Source: a virus
Reading direction: 5' to 3' (one strand)
Virus genome (UHGV): UHGV-1824378
Length of the DNA: 10,318 bases
Shown: positions 3,496 to 9,334 of the stretch, in pieces
Layout: each line of letters starts with the position of its first letter
Numbering within the stretch: the first letter of the stretch is position 1
The notes under the pieces: model-generated
Database searches by the model: none
The model's input: only the letters and a program-made list of their open reading frames with translations
Told to the model about the DNA's origin: nothing
Made by a program: the position numbers and the translations under genes

Positions 3496-3849
3496 ATGTT
3501 AAGTAAGCATTTTTCTCGCAAGGAATTTAAATGTAAATGCGGAAAATGTGATTATGATACAATCGACGCTGAATTACTGGTTATTCTTGAGGATGTACGC
3601 GAACACTTCGGGAAACCAGTGATTATTAACAGTGGGAACCGTTGCCCAACTCATAACAAGAATGTAGGCGGTGCAACCAACAGCTATCACGTTCGAGGTC
3701 GTGCGGCTGACATTGTGGTCAAGGGTGTCTCCCCTGATATTGTCCATGCTTATCTTGATGGGAAATATCCTACTCAATACGGCTTAGGCAAATATAAAAC
3801 CTTTACGCATATCGATTCCAGATCGAAAAAATCACGATGGAATGGATAA
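3496..3849 (+). CDS. Peptidase M15-family (M15_3 / DUF882-like) zinc peptidase, probable peptidoglycan-active hydrolase
   Basis: Motifs SGNRCPTHNKNVGG, SYHVRGRAADI and FTHID match the SG(Y/F)R...H...D...H zinc-ligand pattern of Peptidase_M15_3 as I recall it. SD aaggggg; terminator immediately downstream. Confidence 0.7.
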   Translation: MLSKHFSRKEFKCKCGKCDYDTIDAELLVILEDVREHFGKPVIINSGNRCPTHNKNVGGATNSYHVRGRAADIVVKGVSPDIVHAYLDGKYPTQYGLGKYKTFTHIDSRSKKSRWNG

Positions 3850-3855
3850 AATTAA

Positions 3856-3879
3856 AGCGCCTCTAGTGGGCGCTTTTTT
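3856..3879. terminator. Rho-independent terminator between convergent operons
   Basis: Stem agcgcc (3856-3861) / ggcgct (3869-3874), 7-nt loop, then T6 (3874-3879) on the plus strand. Sits between the plus-strand stop at 3849 and the minus-strand stop at 3881, so may act in both directions. Confidence 0.7.
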
Positions 3880-3880
3880 G

Positions 3881-5371
3881 TTATATAGCAATTGTTTTAG
3901 TTGCATATCTGAACTTGTCGGTTAGATAATATCGGATTCTCTCAAGTGCATGTTTTACCGCATAATTTTTATGCTTGACTTTTCCGTTACGACCGAATAT
4001 ACACAGATGATCGATAAGATCCCAGACCGTTGCAATATCCTTAGAACCATGTTTACGCAATGCACGACCGATACTCTGACGAACGATAGTTGATTCCTTC
4101 ACTGGATGACCGAAAATAACATGGTGCAAGTTCTTAATTGAAACACCAGTAGAGAATACACCATAAGACGCAACACAAATGATCCCTGTGTCACCCTCCG
4201 CCATTTTCTTAAATTCATCACGTTCTTCTGTCTTAACTCCACCGTCAATATAATAAACCTTGTCGTGTACCTTCTGTAACGCGTCATACATAAGTTTTCC
4301 ATGCTTAGTATTGCGGAACATAAGGAATACGTTTTCACCCTTCTTAGCGAGTTTTAGCGCCAAATTACAAGCAAACTTATTACGTCGTGGGTTAGACGTA
4401 ATATACTTGATCTCTTCCGCATATTCTCGCCCCTTAACCGCGCTACATTCCTCATCGGTATAACGAAGGAAAAGACAGTTAATTTTCAGTTTTGTCACCT
4501 GCCCTTCTTCCATCAGGCGGTCAATACTCACGATCTTAGAAATATCACCGAAAAGCCCGACATACTGCATTAAATGGCACTTTGATTCTTTCGGGGAACC
4601 AGTCATACCGATCTTAAACTGGCAATGATTCATTCCGTTAATGATATTGGTAATATTTTTGGCACTAGCCTTATGCGATTCATCAACTATCAACATTCCA
4701 TATTGTTTGAACCATTCAGGAGGCATCTTGCACGCTGATTGCCAGGTACTAACCGTGATTAACCTGTCTCCCGGATGTTTCCCGCTACCACTCATCATTG
4801 TATGAATTGCTTCATAAGGGAATAACCGATAATCGATGAAATCATCCCTCATTTGAACCACTAGCGATGTAGTCGGGACAATGATTAACACCTTTCCGGT
4901 GTAATGCTCTAAGTACCAACGAGACAGCATACAAGCAATCAATGACTTTCCGGCACTGGTAGGAAGAACCAGCATTCTACGGCGATTGTGGATACCCTGA
5001 AAGACTGCTTCACGCTGATACCAGTAAGGATTGATTTTATTGGAACCGGAATACACTTCTAAAGAGTCAATCCACGAATCAATCTGTTCTTTGGTTACAT
5101 CTTCCTTCTCAAGTAATCGCGGGTCAATCCAGACTGAATAGCCCATATTTTTAACGAAGACACCCAATGTTTTTAATAGTCCAATTGGTAGGGTATTTTC
5201 ATGCGTAAACAGTCTTATTCGTCCATCCCAGCCGGAATACTTGTAGCGGGGGCTAAACCTAGCCCCTTCAACCTCAAACGAGAAATAATCTCTTAATTCC
5301 ATTCCGATAGAAGGAGAGCAATCAACCTTAACGAAACTGTAATCTTGAAAATGAATTTTAATATCTTGCAT
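3881..5371 (-). CDS. uvsW: UvsW-type SF2 DNA helicase (T4 UvsW-like)
   Basis: Walker A LPTSAGKS, motif II DESH, motif III TGS, motif VI QSIGRALRKHG. N- and C-terminal regions resemble T4 UvsW as I recall it (MQDIKIHFQDYSFVKVDC..., ...VWDLID...). I place the start at ATG 5371 (SD ggag upstream, overlaps upstream stop as TAATG); the track ORF starts at GTG 5380. Confidence 0.88.
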   Translation of the reverse strand: MQDIKIHFQDYSFVKVDCSPSIGMELRDYFSFEVEGARFSPRYKYSGWDGRIRLFTHENTLPIGLLKTLGVFVKNMGYSVWIDPRLLEKEDVTKEQIDSWIDSLEVYSGSNKINPYWYQREAVFQGIHNRRRMLVLPTSAGKSLIACMLSRWYLEHYTGKVLIIVPTTSLVVQMRDDFIDYRLFPYEAIHTMMSGSGKHPGDRLITVSTWQSACKMPPEWFKQYGMLIVDESHKASAKNITNIINGMNHCQFKIGMTGSPKESKCHLMQYVGLFGDISKIVSIDRLMEEGQVTKLKINCLFLRYTDEECSAVKGREYAEEIKYITSNPRRNKFACNLALKLAKKGENVFLMFRNTKHGKLMYDALQKVHDKVYYIDGGVKTEERDEFKKMAEGDTGIICVASYGVFSTGVSIKNLHHVIFGHPVKESTIVRQSIGRALRKHGSKDIATVWDLIDHLCIFGRNGKVKHKNYAVKHALERIRYYLTDKFRYATKTIAI

Positions 5372-5940
5372 TAGTTCCACTCCACACTTGCAATATTCTT
5401 TATATTGTTTAGTGATTTATTGCAGTAGTGGAATGTTTCAGTTTTGCCGTATTCAATCCCGCCTATACCCACATCCAGTAATCTCTTTATTGCTCTTTCA
5501 GTGGCTAAAGCATGTTTCATTGATGGCATTTCACCAGCAAAGACAATATCAAAGTTATGACCGGGATTGCGTACACCCAGATTAACACGTCGCTTGATGA
5601 TTGACTTTGTAACACCAAATTTACCAATATCCCCTGATTTCATTACATAGAGATAAGGCACACCCGCTTTATATTGAAAGTAATCACTATTGAAGCAAAC
5701 ACATCGTTTACCTTCATTAAGCAGGTTAGTAGCTGATTTGTCGGCTCTATTACCGCATCGGGTACATGTTAGAGCAATTCTTGAATGAAGCCCTTTAAAC
5801 TCACCCAGAAAGCCATGAAAGACTAACGGTAAGTCCTTCTCTTTGATGTGAGTCAGAATGCGTTGTTCTAATGCCGATGGAGTTACAGCACGGGAGGATT
5901 TAGGAGTAAAAACAATATCTTTAGCCATTACTGGAATCAT
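5371..5940 (-). CDS. Zinc-ribbon + GIY-YIG-superfamily (T5orf172-type) nuclease-like protein, homing-endonuclease-like, 189 aa
   Basis: ATG at 5940 with SD gtgagg. CxxC...CxC cluster (CTRCGNRADKSATNLLNEGKRCVCF) followed by YLYVM...GKFGVTKS...RR...ERAIKR...GKTETF, which matches the T5orf172 / GIY-YIG-like signature as I recall it. Stop overlaps helicase start, implying translational coupling. Confidence 0.6.
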   Translation of the reverse strand: MIPVMAKDIVFTPKSSRAVTPSALEQRILTHIKEKDLPLVFHGFLGEFKGLHSRIALTCTRCGNRADKSATNLLNEGKRCVCFNSDYFQYKAGVPYLYVMKSGDIGKFGVTKSIIKRRVNLGVRNPGHNFDIVFAGEMPSMKHALATERAIKRLLDVGIGGIEYGKTETFHYCNKSLNNIKNIASVEWN

Positions 5941-6002
5941 ATAGACCTCACTTTTTTAACTTATAGGCATAACCTCAATATGGTTGGTTTGGGATTTAGG
6001 GT

Positions 6003-6035
6003 CGCGTATTATACACATTCAGATAGAGAATGCAA
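6003..6035 (-). promoter_or_regulatory. Candidate sigma70-type promoter for the nuclease-helicase operon
   Basis: Minus strand reads TTGCAT (6035-6030), 16-nt spacer, TATAAT (6013-6008), then ACGCG (6007-6003), about 65 nt upstream of ATG 5940. The TATAATACGCG 11-mer recurs at 9051-9061. Confidence 0.4.
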
Positions 6036-6055
6036 TAGTAAGACAATTTTCTCTA

Positions 6056-6062
6056 ATAAATA
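6056..6062 (+). promoter_or_regulatory. ATAAATA heptamer, candidate T4-type late promoter core
   Basis: aATAAATA at 6055-6062, 32 nt upstream of ATG 6095. Confidence 0.3.
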
Positions 6063-6094
6063 GTAGTGAGCTTATTATTTTAGAGGAAACTACT

Positions 6095-7270
6095 ATGAAA
6101 CTTGCTTACGCTGCCGAAATTCCTTTTGTTAAGAAAACTCGCGGTTTATCGCCGGAAGAGTACCAACAACGAATCATCGCTAAACTGGAACCTGCTTTCG
6201 TATTTGGTGGATTTATCCTACCGTGGAAGGGTAATCACACTTACTTTCGAATCTACAATTTAGATACACAAGAATATAAGGACTACAAATTACGCAAACT
6301 GGAAGATACTAACGGGGGTGAGTTATTCCAGACTGAAAAGGCTGTATGGTTGAAAATGGAATCTCGTTGTAATGAGAAGGGAAAGAAATTCCTCGGATGG
6401 CAAGGAGAATGGAAAGGGCGAAATAGAACGAAAGCCCGTGTTTTGTGCCCTGAACACAATCAAATCATGACGCCATCTCTATTACATGCTCTCAAGGATG
6501 ATTTTGATTTTGATTGTAAAATCTGTATGGCTGAAAAATCCCAACGGGTAAGAAGTGGCAAGACTTTTGATGAAGTTATTAAGGACAAAGAGACAATCAT
6601 CAATGCACGTTGCGAGAGTACGCCTTACACCTTCAAAGGATTCATCATAAACACCCCACACCTAAAGGATGTTAAATTTAAAACCTATTGCAAGTCACAT
6701 AACCACGAATGGGAATCTCATTTAAGATGTGCTGATTCTTTCACTTGTCCGCTTTGTATTAAAGACCAACTGGTGCAACTGTCTAACCGGACTTATCAGG
6801 GTAAGGCTAGTTTCTACATTCAATTATTAGATGACAAATTTATTAAATTTGGAATCACTACCCGAAAACCAGAAGAACGAATGAGAGAACAAACCAGAAA
6901 GAGCAACTTCACTCACCGCTTAATCTTTACTCATGAGTTTGAGGATGGTTGGAAAGCTGCCGATTTAGAGCATGAAGTAAAACAACGCTTCAAGACTCAT
7001 GCAGCACCCTACAAAGATTTCAAGGATGGATGGTCGGAAACTCTGACTATTGATGAGTTACCACACTTACAGCAACTGGTTTATGACTACCTAACCAATC
7101 AACCGGACGAGGCTAATATGTGGGTATCTCCGAAAGATGTATTTGATGACGATACATTCAAGCTACATACTCACTTCTACGGCATCAATAAACCGGAATT
7201 TTTCTGTATTGATGACGACAGTCCTGATTTAATGGATGAATACTTTAATACGCTCTTAGACGCTGCCTAA
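6095..7270 (+). CDS. Tandem zinc-finger + GIY-YIG-superfamily (T5orf172-type) nuclease-like protein, 391 aa
   Basis: ATG at 6095 with SD gaggaaa; the track ORF begins at an upstream TTG (5984) that I do not favour. Two Cys/His modules (CPEHN...CKIC; CKSHNHEWESHLRCADSFTCPLC) then FYIQLL...KFGITTRKPEERMRE...EHEVKQRFK...GWSETL, paralogous to the C-terminal half of the 5371-5940 protein. Confidence 0.65.
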   Translation: MKLAYAAEIPFVKKTRGLSPEEYQQRIIAKLEPAFVFGGFILPWKGNHTYFRIYNLDTQEYKDYKLRKLEDTNGGELFQTEKAVWLKMESRCNEKGKKFLGWQGEWKGRNRTKARVLCPEHNQIMTPSLLHALKDDFDFDCKICMAEKSQRVRSGKTFDEVIKDKETIINARCESTPYTFKGFIINTPHLKDVKFKTYCKSHNHEWESHLRCADSFTCPLCIKDQLVQLSNRTYQGKASFYIQLLDDKFIKFGITTRKPEERMREQTRKSNFTHRLIFTHEFEDGWKAADLEHEVKQRFKTHAAPYKDFKDGWSETLTIDELPHLQQLVYDYLTNQPDEANMWVSPKDVFDDDTFKLHTHFYGINKPEFFCIDDDSPDLMDEYFNTLLDAA

Positions 7271-7285
7271 CGCAATTAAATTCAA

Positions 7286-7307
7286 AAGGGGTACAGATGT
7301 ACCCCTT
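7286..7307. terminator. Bidirectional hairpin terminator between convergent genes
   Basis: Perfect palindrome aaggggtac-agat-gtacccctt (7286-7307). Minus strand has the U-tract (plus-strand ttcaaaa 7281-7287); plus strand has a weaker T-run after it. Confidence 0.6.
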
Positions 7308-7343: not shown

Positions 7344-9023
7344 TTAAATTCCAAATTCCTGTAATGGACCTGGTATTTCCTCTTCTGGTTTCCAGTTCTT
7401 ATCTGTCAGCATGTCTAAACATGGATGCAAAACAAGCCCGTTACTTTCCAGAATCTGTCTATCATTGATAGTTTTCAAATCAATGAATATCCGGCCTTTC
7501 CTCGTTCCTCTTGAATTTTCTATTACAACTCTCTGGGTCTTTCCATCGATGTATTCCAGTACAAACAAGTTTTTGTTTCTGTCAATCCTGCTACACCCGA
7601 TCCGCTTTAGAGCTTGCTTAATCTTAAACCGGACCTTTAGTCGTTCCTCGTTGTAAACATCTTCTAAATCAAATTCTGCGAGCTTCTCCCAGCCTTGAGA
7701 GTCAACAGAATACATTTCCTCTTCTGCCATCTTGATCTGATTGTAGAGTGTTTCACGCTCGCTATTGAGGGTAGTAATCTGATCGGCTAGCTCCTTCGTT
7801 GCTCCTGTCATAGCAGAAAGGGCAATCAGGTTATCAATCTTGCGTGATATTTCATCAACCTGTACTTTCAACGCCGGAACCGGATTAGCCTTATCCTCAG
7901 CAATCCAGATTTTATCAGCCAGCAATTGCAATACAGCTTTCTCTAATTGATCCCCTCGAAAACTCCAGTTTGGATGCTCGCAATCAAGTCTACGTGAACG
8001 GGTCGCATCACATGTATAACGATACTGGTCAGAACGTTTGTTTGTTCCCTTCACTTTAACCATAGCGCAACCGCAATGATCACATTTCAATAGGCCAATG
8101 CCACTAAGCAGGGGGATCGGTTTAACTTCTTCCTTGTCTCCAAAGTTCCATGCTCTAGCACCAATATTTTTCTTAAGGTGATAGAACGTAGCATCATCAA
8201 TAACACGAGGGTAATAATCCTTTAACTCATAGTTAACACCATCAACAGAGACCTCCTTGATACCAATCAAAGCGCGGGTATGGAACAACCTTTCAACCAT
8301 TGCCCGTGACCATTTTGAATGCTTCTTGTTGCTTACTGCTGGTGGTGGTGCATATGTCTCGTTAAGGTGATCCAGTATTTCGGCGGTTGAACGTCCATTC
8401 TTCCGTAATTCCACAATCTCCTGAACAACAGGGAAGTATGTAGGATGAGGCAACACATAACCGGAAGTGGTATCAGTCCACCACATATTCTTTCCAACTT
8501 CCTCGATAGCCACTGCCGGATTTTGTGGATTTTCTTGATGAGCTTTAATCTTAATCAATGCGCTTGAGTTAGTACGATTGCGCTTAGTCTGACTTTCCTC
8601 ATTACCACGGATGAATAAAAGGATGGAGAACATCAGGTCCATCGGATTAGCGGTAACAGTATCCAGCGAGTAGATCTTGTTATCCATGCCAGTAACAATG
8701 GTTATTCCCCTACGGATGATTGAAAGGAATAACTCCTGCGCACTGACAATATCGGCACGGGATAAGCGGTCCAAGTTTTCAATGAATAGCCAGCTACCAA
8801 CAGGAACGGATCTACCAATTGCATCAAGGAAACGAGATAGCGCCCCTGTTTTAGAGTTAGCACCCTTAAACGCAGATACACCCAGATCCTGATAATCATT
8901 TACCAGTTCAAGGTCATACTTTGCCGCAACCTCTCTCGCCATCCTGATTTGTCGTTCATAACTCGAACCATCATTCTGACGCATAGACGAGAAGCGAATA
9001 TACGAATACAGTTTAGTTTTCAT
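7344..9023 (-). CDS. Large serine recombinase (serine integrase / resolvase superfamily), 559 aa
   Basis: N-terminal catalytic domain motifs YSYIRFSSMRQ (catalytic Ser), DLGVSAFKG and ENLDRLSR; Cys-rich zinc-ribbon (CDHCGCAMVKVKG...YTCDATRSRRLDCEHP); C-terminal coiled-coil. The size and domain order match large serine recombinases. Confidence 0.88.
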   Translation of the reverse strand: MKTKLYSYIRFSSMRQNDGSSYERQIRMAREVAAKYDLELVNDYQDLGVSAFKGANSKTGALSRFLDAIGRSVPVGSWLFIENLDRLSRADIVSAQELFLSIIRRGITIVTGMDNKIYSLDTVTANPMDLMFSILLFIRGNEESQTKRNRTNSSALIKIKAHQENPQNPAVAIEEVGKNMWWTDTTSGYVLPHPTYFPVVQEIVELRKNGRSTAEILDHLNETYAPPPAVSNKKHSKWSRAMVERLFHTRALIGIKEVSVDGVNYELKDYYPRVIDDATFYHLKKNIGARAWNFGDKEEVKPIPLLSGIGLLKCDHCGCAMVKVKGTNKRSDQYRYTCDATRSRRLDCEHPNWSFRGDQLEKAVLQLLADKIWIAEDKANPVPALKVQVDEISRKIDNLIALSAMTGATKELADQITTLNSERETLYNQIKMAEEEMYSVDSQGWEKLAEFDLEDVYNEERLKVRFKIKQALKRIGCSRIDRNKNLFVLEYIDGKTQRVVIENSRGTRKGRIFIDLKTINDRQILESNGLVLHPCLDMLTDKNWKPEEEIPGPLQEFGI

Positions 9024-9088: not shown

Positions 9089-9334
9089 TTAATATTTCTT
9101 TCCAGTTAGTTTTGCATCACGTTTATTAATATCCTCGATATGACTCCATACACACGCAGTAATAAAGTCGTCATCGTCACCAACTCCGGCAACCTGTGCT
9201 AATTCAGTACACAGTTGATTTAAAGAAGGTGCAACGGCAGCACGCTTGACACTATCACCCTGTACATATTGTTCGGCATTTGCAGCACCAACCAAACCCA
9301 GAGCAAGAACGATACCCGCGATAATCTTTTTCAT
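9089..9334 (-). CDS. Small secreted (signal-peptide) protein, 81 aa
   Basis: ATG at 9334 with SD gagga. N-terminus MKKIIAGIVLALGLVGAANA-EQY has a basic n-region, hydrophobic core and AxA cleavage site; mature part about 61 aa with two Cys and an acidic DDDD patch. Confidence 0.6.
   Translation of the reverse strand: MKKIIAGIVLALGLVGAANAEQYVQGDSVKRAAVAPSLNQLCTELAQVAGVGDDDDFITACVWSHIEDINKRDAKLTGKKY

Follow-up and report, generated by a model that had tools for sequence, protein, structure and literature searches.

A T5orf172-family nuclease gene overlapping a prophage uvsW gene and a possible homing-endonuclease island common to lytic and temperate phages

Why do the genes of a small nuclease and a UvsW-type helicase share a nucleotide, and are their products partners or only neighbours? 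The question is raised by a stretch of 10,318 nucleotides (nt) of the viral genome UHGV-1824378, referred to here as the window, in which the gene of a 189-amino-acid (aa) T5orf172-family nuclease ends within the first codon of the helicase gene. A first-pass annotation of the window had read the overlap as translational coupling, had noted that the homing endonuclease gene segE stands directly upstream of uvsW in phage T4, and had considered either an insertion hotspot occupied by a different endonuclease family or a real helicase-nuclease pair. It had also implied the context of a T-even genome, but the window is the right (integrase-proximal) end of a temperate siphovirus-like prophage of ~40 kb, found at ycdX in the chromosomes of Escherichia coli and Salmonella. 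On balance, we lean towards a homing-endonuclease island common to lytic and temperate phages, in which the nuclease and the helicase are neighbours and not an obligate pair. The argument involves the following features.

3881..5371, minus strand: intact UvsW-type superfamily 2 (SF2) helicase of 496 aa, with the Pfam domains UvsW_N, ResIII and Helicase_C
4004..4570, minus strand: recent conversion tract within the helicase coding sequence (nt 802-1368 of the gene), sharing 98% identity with uvsW of Krischvirus
5369..5373, minus strand: TAATG stop/start overlap, read directly from the sequence
5380..5383, minus strand: Shine-Dalgarno sequence GGAG of the helicase, by sequence reading, 8 nt before the ATG and within the last codons of the 189-aa open reading frame (ORF)
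5371..5940, minus strand: T5orf172-family nuclease of 189 aa, with a CapR-type CxxC...CxC zinc ribbon (C59, C62, C80, C82) and a C-terminal GIY-YIG-fold domain
5941..6094: divergent intergenic control region, common to otherwise unrelated nuclease alleles
6095..7270, plus strand: paralogous T5orf172-family nuclease of 391 aa, with CapR and MUG113/T5orf172 matches, divergently transcribed

The gene overlap and the two nucleases

The minus strand reads ...GTG GAG TGG AAC TAA TGC AAG, where the TAA of the 189-aa gene (5373-5371) and the ATG of the helicase gene (5371-5369) have base 5371 in common, exactly as first annotated. The ORF list puts the helicase start at GTG 5380; we adopted ATG 5371 instead, from which the product (MQDIKIHF...) aligns with every UvsW start and which is also the RefSeq start in the same prophage. 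The GGAG site is retained in three relatives, namely L013, L030 and the deletion derivative L008. Because the helicase has its own Shine-Dalgarno sequence, the overlap permits translational coupling yet is unnecessary for initiation. The 1-nt overlap recurs in L013-L016 and L030. Other relatives have spacers instead (L010, 1 nt; L012, 9 nt; L011, 12 nt), as do T4, with 2 nt separating segE from uvsW, and the Krischvirus phage G5211, with 4 nt. Tight packing is general and typical of operons, and the exact TAATG overlap is not specially conserved.

The 189-aa protein had been called T5orf172-type, which holds at the level of the family but not for the window allele taken alone: its score for Pfam T5orf172, 13.5 bits, falls short of the cut-off (20). 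CapR is the only Pfam family that it passes (25 bits, cut-off 24.2). Across the family, CapR matches all 11 members, T5orf172 10 of the 11 and GIY-YIG six of the 11. The protein also matches the PHROG family phrog_681, described as 'endonuclease' (E = 1.4e-18), whose profile spans 576 positions; with one zinc ribbon, it is among the smallest members. Its homologues are few (16 clusters, 97-41% identity). Down to 42% identity, the four zinc-ribbon cysteines C59, C62, C80 and C82 are invariant, together with the nuclease core residues Y96, Y98, K107, G109, R117, E148 and TETF167-170. The best structural match of the GIY-YIG fold is SLX1, a structure-specific nuclease. A CapR-type zinc finger combined with a T5orf172 nuclease is the architecture of T5orf172 homing endonucleases (Barth et al., PMC10448857). 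Neither the 189-aa nor the 391-aa nuclease matched any family in NCBIfam or any entry in PADLOC. An Rfam scan of the whole window at gathering thresholds found no RNA family, and hence the nucleases are not accompanied by an intron or a ribozyme.

The 391-aa paralogue matches Pfam CapR (4.3e-10), MUG113 (7e-6) and T5orf172 (8.8e-4), as well as phrog_681 (1.2e-43). The ORF list extends it to TTG 5984, and the RefSeq start corresponds to ATG 6095. Its closest phage homologue is the 361-aa phrog_681 gene of the Krischvirus phages Whisky and JK32, at 29.7% identity. The region separating the two divergent nuclease genes is better conserved than the genes: positions 5901-6097 are 83% identical to relative L013, though the ORF bodies cannot be aligned. 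Within it, a 53-nt leader (6047-6099), which includes the ribosome-binding site and an inverted repeat (6047-6056/6080-6089), recurs upstream of an unrelated 332-aa nuclease gene in L002 and L028 (90-92% identity), and this leader may be a common regulatory or autoregulatory element. By our own reading, TTGCAT (6035-6030) and TATAAT (6013-6008), separated by 16 nt, form a possible minus-strand promoter for a nuclease-helicase operon. A scan for the sigma-70 consensus gave no hit in the intergenic region, did not report this TTGCAT-TATAAT candidate, and yielded fewer hits than shuffled sequence.

The uvsW slot in lytic phages and the mosaic helicase gene

In T4, segE lies directly upstream of uvsW in the order inh <- | segE -> uvsW ->, ending 2 nt before uvsW, and Edgell et al. 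2010 (PMC2988022) name inh/uvsW as its insertion site and uvsW as its target; the gene order given in the first-pass annotation was accurate. Among the Krischvirus phages, which are RB49-like relatives of T4, G5211 has a 243-aa GIY-YIG gene in this slot directly upstream of uvsW, Phi1 has an empty inh-uvsW slot, and Whisky and JK32 carry their phrog_681 gene directly downstream of uvsW, between uvsW and uvsW.1. Krischvirus nuclease genes thus fall on either side of uvsW, depending on the isolate, and the suggestion of the same hotspot occupied by a different endonuclease family stands.

How close is the 189-aa protein to SegE? Both genes lie directly upstream of uvsW, in the same orientation and with hardly any spacer, both products belong to the GIY-YIG-fold superfamily, and in both cases expression signals of the host gene are embedded in the endonuclease gene. 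SegE targets the uvsW of endonuclease-free relatives (PMC2988022), whereas cleavage by the 189-aa protein is only predicted. The latter is also unlike SegE in being a T5orf172 protein with a CapR zinc ribbon, in residing in a temperate prophage and in being paired with a divergent paralogue. A tblastn search of a phage collection including T4 gave no T4 or seg match to the nuclease at E <= 1e-3. As judged from these comparisons, the likeness is positional and at the level of the superfamily, with no apparent sequence homology to SegA-G. The T5orf172 homing endonucleases of phrog_681 (T5 orf172, RB49 ORF238c-like, ICP1 gp165/gp174 and the Whisky/JK32 gene), which carry CapR, DUF723 or DUF4397 zinc fingers, resemble it in domain architecture, in the CxxC...CxC motif and in the invariant T5orf172 core (PMC10448857). 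They are also found beside a DNA-metabolism gene, with several paralogues per genome and with alleles replaced at a fixed site. The 189-aa protein differs from them in its small size with one zinc ribbon, in its 24-40% identity to any phage copy and in its location in a prophage.

The helicase was confirmed as UvsW-type by its UvsW_N match (1.7e-34) and by its collinearity with the crystal structure of T4 UvsW (PDB 2oca, E = 1e-183, residues 3-494). Its amino-acid identity is 81-83% to Krischvirus UvsW and 53% to T4 UvsW, and all helicase motifs are invariant, including the Walker A, DExH and motif VI residues. It resembles T4 and Krischvirus UvsW over the full length, with UvsW_N and all SF2 motifs, and differs from them in being encoded by a prophage, in having no T-even late promoter, in the lack of uvsW.1 in the window and in a divergent stretch of the last ~150 nt. 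Known helicase-nuclease anti-phage systems (Hachiman etc.) were considered for the locus and rejected, as the nucleases have no PADLOC signature match and the helicase gave just weak generic SF2 matches (PbeA, 4.9e-12; HamB, 2e-5).

Among the genes of the window, the helicase gene alone has DNA-level matches to T4-like phages, and it has a mosaic sequence. Over its first 800 nt, it is 84-98% identical to the prophage allele of L013 and 56-77% identical to Krischvirus (Phi1), whereas in the tract that follows, 11 of the 567 positions are mismatched with Phi1, one run of 188 nt is free of mismatches, and mismatches are dense on both flanks, where identity is 50-77%. The last ~150 nt of the gene show 48-63% nucleotide identity to every copy compared. 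All 13 close prophage alleles carry the tract, some fitting the Phi1-type and others the G5211-type variant, which argues for repeated conversion. In the window allele, a 5' part of the prophage type is joined to a 3' part of the phage type, and each of the parental types is also found; the recombinant thus arose in the prophage, and the DNA moved from phage to prophage. The tract therefore points to a recent phage-to-prophage conversion. The helicase gene has no Chi site, and Chi is thus no explanation for the tract boundaries. Krischvirus phages lack 5-hydroxymethylcytosine (hmC) and EndoIV and are capable of generalized transduction (PMC12115623), which could be one route for phage-prophage exchange, besides infected lysogens that survive.

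In Phi1, uvsW is preceded by a perfect late promoter, TATAAATA; the prophage has nuclease coding sequence there instead. As a separate observation, TATAAAGA at 5397-5404 on the minus strand, within the nuclease gene and 26-33 nt upstream of the helicase ATG, matches the T4-type late promoter at 7 of 8 positions, possibly by chance in AT-rich DNA.

Turnover of the island among prophage relatives

The genomic contexts retrieved for homologues of the 189-aa protein all belong to one prophage family of E. coli and Salmonella, near ycdY/ycdZ/csgG. In all of them, the arrangement large nuclease <-, small nuclease ->, UvsW -> is kept over 41-97% identity. Several relatives of this prophage, given here by their labels, carry further T-even pieces.

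L010: uvsW.1
L013-16: uvsY
L013 (8574-8852) and L014 (8570-8852): fragment of 283 nt with the end of gene 51 and the start of gene 27, 97-98% identical to Krischvirus, beside the endolysin gene
L013, 8847-9120: second, tandem copy of the gene 51/27 junction, 77% identical
L030: piece of uvsY, 88% identical to Phi1
L002, 6942-7253: internal inh fragment of 312 nt, 97-99% identical to Krischvirus, in the divergent intergenic region
L028, 4782-5196: internal inh fragment of 415 nt, 97-99% identical to Krischvirus, in the divergent intergenic region
L029, 4243-4312: inh remnant of 70 nt, 90% identical to Krischvirus, in the divergent intergenic region

In L013 and L014, uvsY is positioned between the gene 51/27 fragments and uvsW. 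The inh fragments of L002, L028 and L029 are nested; the inh product is an inhibitor of the prohead protease, and truncated Inh-like proteins might be made from the 146-148-aa ORFs that enclose the two longer fragments. Throughout, the order and orientation of the pieces are compatible with the T-even map. Together, these comparisons show an island of uvsW and nuclease genes of T-even, Krischvirus-like origin. A PF09097 match in L013 was first taken as gp25; this was rejected, as the DNA fits the gene 51/27 junction.

Against a nearly constant backbone, the nucleases diverge widely. Compared with the window, L013-16 are 98-100% identical in the backbone, 84% in the helicase, 44% in the small nuclease and 27% in the large one. 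The identities of the small and large nucleases are 74 and 32% in L010, 69 and 39% in L011, 51 and 64% in L012, and 44 and 27% in L013; the two nucleases assort independently. Aligned with L013, the window is homologous from uvsW as far as 71 nt into the 3' end of the small nuclease gene; similarity returns (83%) over the first 40 nt of this gene, the region between the two genes and the beginning of the large gene, and once more 10 nt before the stop of the large gene. The nuclease ORF bodies are exchanged between conserved ends, with breakpoints inside the ORFs. L030 (strain FDAARGOS_1267) encodes a third phrog_681 nuclease (9567-10613, 348 aa, E = 2e-73) on the far side of the serine recombinase gene, whose nearest phage relatives are Krischvirus genes at 40% identity; the phrog_681 nucleases are multiplying in this prophage lineage.

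The islands also dissociate. The helicase is found without the nucleases in L008 and L009 and without the small nuclease in L024-27 as well, and nucleases without the helicase in L002 and L028, the latter having a small nuclease paralogue. About 60 E. coli genomes bear the prophage, and the helicase is missing in 43 of them; both nucleases are lost in four of the 17 E. coli genomes that have the helicase. L008 and L009 were considered as empty sites and rejected, as both are deletion derivatives that retain remnants of the two nuclease genes, namely 108 nt from the 3' end of the 189-aa gene and, from the 391-aa gene, its first seven codons and its stop codon. The deletions correspond to positions 5479-6022 and 6116-7267 of the window, with junctions at 8-bp direct repeats (ACAT(C/T)CAG at 5471-78/6015-22 and ACGCTGCC at 6108-15/7260-67). 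The second is in frame and leaves a mini-ORF of seven codons, MKLAYAA.

The genes that persist are constrained. Among close alleles, the ratio of nonsynonymous to synonymous substitution rates (dN/dS) is 0.06 for the helicase (13 prophage alleles) and 0.12 and 0.13 for the small and large nucleases, respectively, compared with 0.045 for the endolysin and 0.06 for the recombinase of the backbone. These ratios show all three island genes to be under purifying selection.

Competing explanations of the locus

The island that we favour would work as follows. The 189-aa gene is predicted to encode a compact free-standing homing-type endonuclease in a slot equivalent to that of segE, using its CapR-type zinc ribbon for DNA recognition and its C-terminal GIY-YIG-fold domain as the nuclease. 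Together with the divergent 391-aa paralogue and uvsW, it would form a Krischvirus-like island lodged in the accessory slot of the prophage. The nuclease gene has taken the place of the uvsW late promoter, so that uvsW would come second on the nuclease transcript, made from a host-type promoter. The position of the uvsW ribosome-binding site inside the last codons of the nuclease gene would then explain the TAATG overlap. The nucleases might cut nuclease-free inh-uvsW regions in superinfecting Krischvirus phages or in sibling prophages, and the breaks could be repaired by recombination across the common uvsW homology. Such repair would keep the nuclease genes and uvsW together and drive the exchange of sequence between lytic phages and the prophage.

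Homing endonuclease gene (HEG) islands (Barth, Dunham and Seed 2023, PMC10448857) offer a close precedent, with a conserved cargo gene bracketed by endonucleases that turn over at a kept position, and stretches of very high nucleotide identity (>90%) between otherwise unrelated phages. Unlike in those islands, the nucleases here are on one side of the cargo, the shared tracts are 0.3-0.6 kb long (97-100% identical) and not >10 kb, and exchange links a virulent genus of myoviruses with a temperate siphovirus-like prophage; the HEG island paper makes no mention of prophages or temperate phages (PMC10448857).

Four observations weigh against the homing-endonuclease island. First, T-even homology is found on one side of the nucleases only, and two-sided classical homing into a T-even genome from this copy is therefore not obviously possible. 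Second, the tract in the helicase gene starts ~800 nt from the nuclease gene and the 100 nt of uvsW closest to that gene are of the prophage type, although a simple co-conversion tract would adjoin it. Third, no close copy of either nuclease was found in a sequenced phage, where the best matches are 24-40% identical, so that homing into Krischvirus is undocumented. Fourth, the three-gene arrangement is intact down to ~70% amino-acid identity of the backbone, with dN/dS of 0.06-0.13; such persistence exceeds what a decaying, wholly selfish endonuclease gene would lead one to expect, so that a function of benefit to the host is conceivable.

This last point bears on a possible though clearly less probable alternative, in which the locus serves in conflict between phages. 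The prophage nucleases would cut superinfecting Krischvirus-type phages at inh-uvsW-uvsY and so protect the lysogen or the prophage, while the diverged uvsW of the prophage would be a cleavage-immune allele or a homology trap, or UvsW made early from a host-type promoter would unwind the R-loops that T-even origins require. T4 UvsW is reportedly a late protein that stops origin replication by unwinding R-loops, a result attributed to Dudas and Kreuzer in 2001, and the uvsW of the prophage has lost its late promoter. The genes stand in a classic prophage accessory slot between lysis genes and integrase, with variable cargo, prophages of both E. coli and Salmonella keep their arrangement, and all three are under purifying selection. 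Hypervariable nuclease bodies between conserved ends and a conserved control region are as expected for specificity determinants in an arms race, and the repeated 97-100% identical Krischvirus fragments would mean frequent encounters whose recombination products persist in lysogens. Domesticated T5orf172/CapR proteins are known from conflicts between phages and satellites, namely PLE CapR and ICP1 Odn (PMC10448857, PMC8096241), where related DNA-binding and nuclease domains on a mobile element are aimed at a competitor and antagonists exchange sequence at the nucleotide level. Unlike PLE CapR, which has lost its nuclease domain, the prophage nucleases have both domains intact. Such a role fits less well with the PADLOC searches, which returned nothing for the nucleases and generic matches for the helicase, and with the frequent erosion of the cargo described above. 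Moreover, RB49-type generalized transduction could explain the imported fragments without any defence (PMC12115623).

A more specific version, which we regard as speculative and rather improbable, is proposed here: a captured T-even piece with hypervariable, site-specific nucleases would be kept as a weapon or trap against lytic Krischvirus-type phages. The incoming phage would be cut near uvsW/inh while the diverged uvsW of the prophage is immune, and the prophage copy of uvsW would soak up phage recombination intermediates or, made early, would collapse R-loop-dependent origins. If so, the 97-100% identical phage fragments would be the scars of survived attacks.

That the two proteins form an obligate enzyme pair, with the 189-aa protein as a subunit or loader of UvsW made in fixed proportion through coupling and the pair processing branched DNA for the temperate phage, seems unlikely. 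Wherever both genes are present, they are tightly adjacent (-1 to +12 nt) down to 41% identity, both are under purifying selection, and the structural similarity to SLX1 would suit such a role. In relatives with the helicase, the small nuclease gene is almost always directly upstream of uvsW, even at 41-44% identity, as the first-pass annotation had asked of a functional partner, but the two genes do not co-vary: nuclease alleles are replaced while the adjoining 5' 100 nt of uvsW remain 97-98% identical. An intact helicase without the nuclease is found in the six relatives named above and in almost all Krischvirus phages, and the small nuclease paralogue of L028 occurs without the helicase. 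The ribosome-binding site of the helicase is its own, and T4 UvsW is a monomer without such a partner, according to its record annotation. The two genes are persistently co-located, yet each is also found without the other, and the real functional pair once considered is not obligate.

An inert relic, meaning a one-off illegitimate capture of slowly decaying T-even DNA with no functional nuclease or helicase today, would fit the many nested deletion derivatives formed at 8-bp repeats and the non-functional inh, gene 51/27 and uvsY fragments, but it is very improbable given dN/dS values similar to those of backbone genes, intact ORFs with catalytic residues invariant across alleles of 41-97% identity, and fresh, repeated Krischvirus imports that show a locus active in recombination.

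Free-standing homing endonucleases beside uvsW in T4 and T5orf172/CapR endonucleases are already known. What is new is the setting, a block of T-even recombination genes in the accessory slot of a temperate prophage with turnover-prone nuclease genes alongside. In the literature searched, the combination of a T-even island in a prophage slot, its conservation in E. coli and Salmonella and an ongoing import from Krischvirus is undescribed. The locus documents, at the level of sequence, gene flow that is still going on between a virulent genus of myoviruses and a temperate siphovirus-like phage, with nuclease genes at the boundary of exchange. Do the nucleases mediate exchange across lifestyles, and do they protect the prophage? 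Both questions could be tested with the RB49/Phi1 group. They also concern phage therapy, for which Krischvirus phages, evidently able to recombine with resident prophages, are candidates.

The prophage backbone and its accessory slot

Sixty of 5426 complete E. coli chromosomes match the whole window, at up to 98% identity, and the same element is present in IMG/VR as viral contigs of 35-45 kb. The gene order in the E. coli genomes is tail tip protein (lambda-J-like), M15 endolysin, cargo, large serine recombinase and truncated ycdX. The slot between endolysin and integrase differs in content among otherwise near-identical prophages, and its borders in the window are as follows.

3496..3849, plus strand: M15 peptidase endolysin (Pfam Peptidase_M15_3, E = 3.5e-28), the last backbone gene left of the slot
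3854..3876: bidirectional terminator hairpin separating the convergent genes of endolysin and helicase, found by a terminator scan on both strands
7286..7307: terminator hairpin separating the 391-aa gene from that of the recombinase, at the right edge of the slot, found by a terminator scan
7344..9023, minus strand: large serine recombinase, the prophage integrase (Pfam Resolvase, Recombinase and Zn_ribbon_recom), the first backbone gene right of the slot

The endolysin is 98-99% identical in prophages with other cargo, and homology to such prophages picks up again at about 7256-7260. Base composition gave no signal that sets the island apart. Among isolated phages, no close relative of the backbone was found, only short matches of 66-76% in the tail-tip genes. 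Two scans of genomes that represent bacterial species, one with the single helicase sequence and one with a helicase alignment, returned no relatives; the representative genomes lack the island.

In L029 (E. coli 14EC017), a prophage of the same type with a nearly empty cargo slot lies next to hicB/ydcR rather than ycdX, an indication that this family of serine recombinases has a second attachment site. Adjoining the integrase gene in the window, an 81-aa ORF on the minus strand (9089-9334) begins with a signal-peptide-like stretch, MKKIIAGIVLALGLVGAANA, and may be an accessory gene for a small secreted protein or lipoprotein. At the other end, the C-terminal receptor-binding part of the tail tip protein (70-1845) is 85-88% identical in some prophages of the same backbone and 98% identical in others, suggesting that the host-range module of this protein is swapped among prophages.

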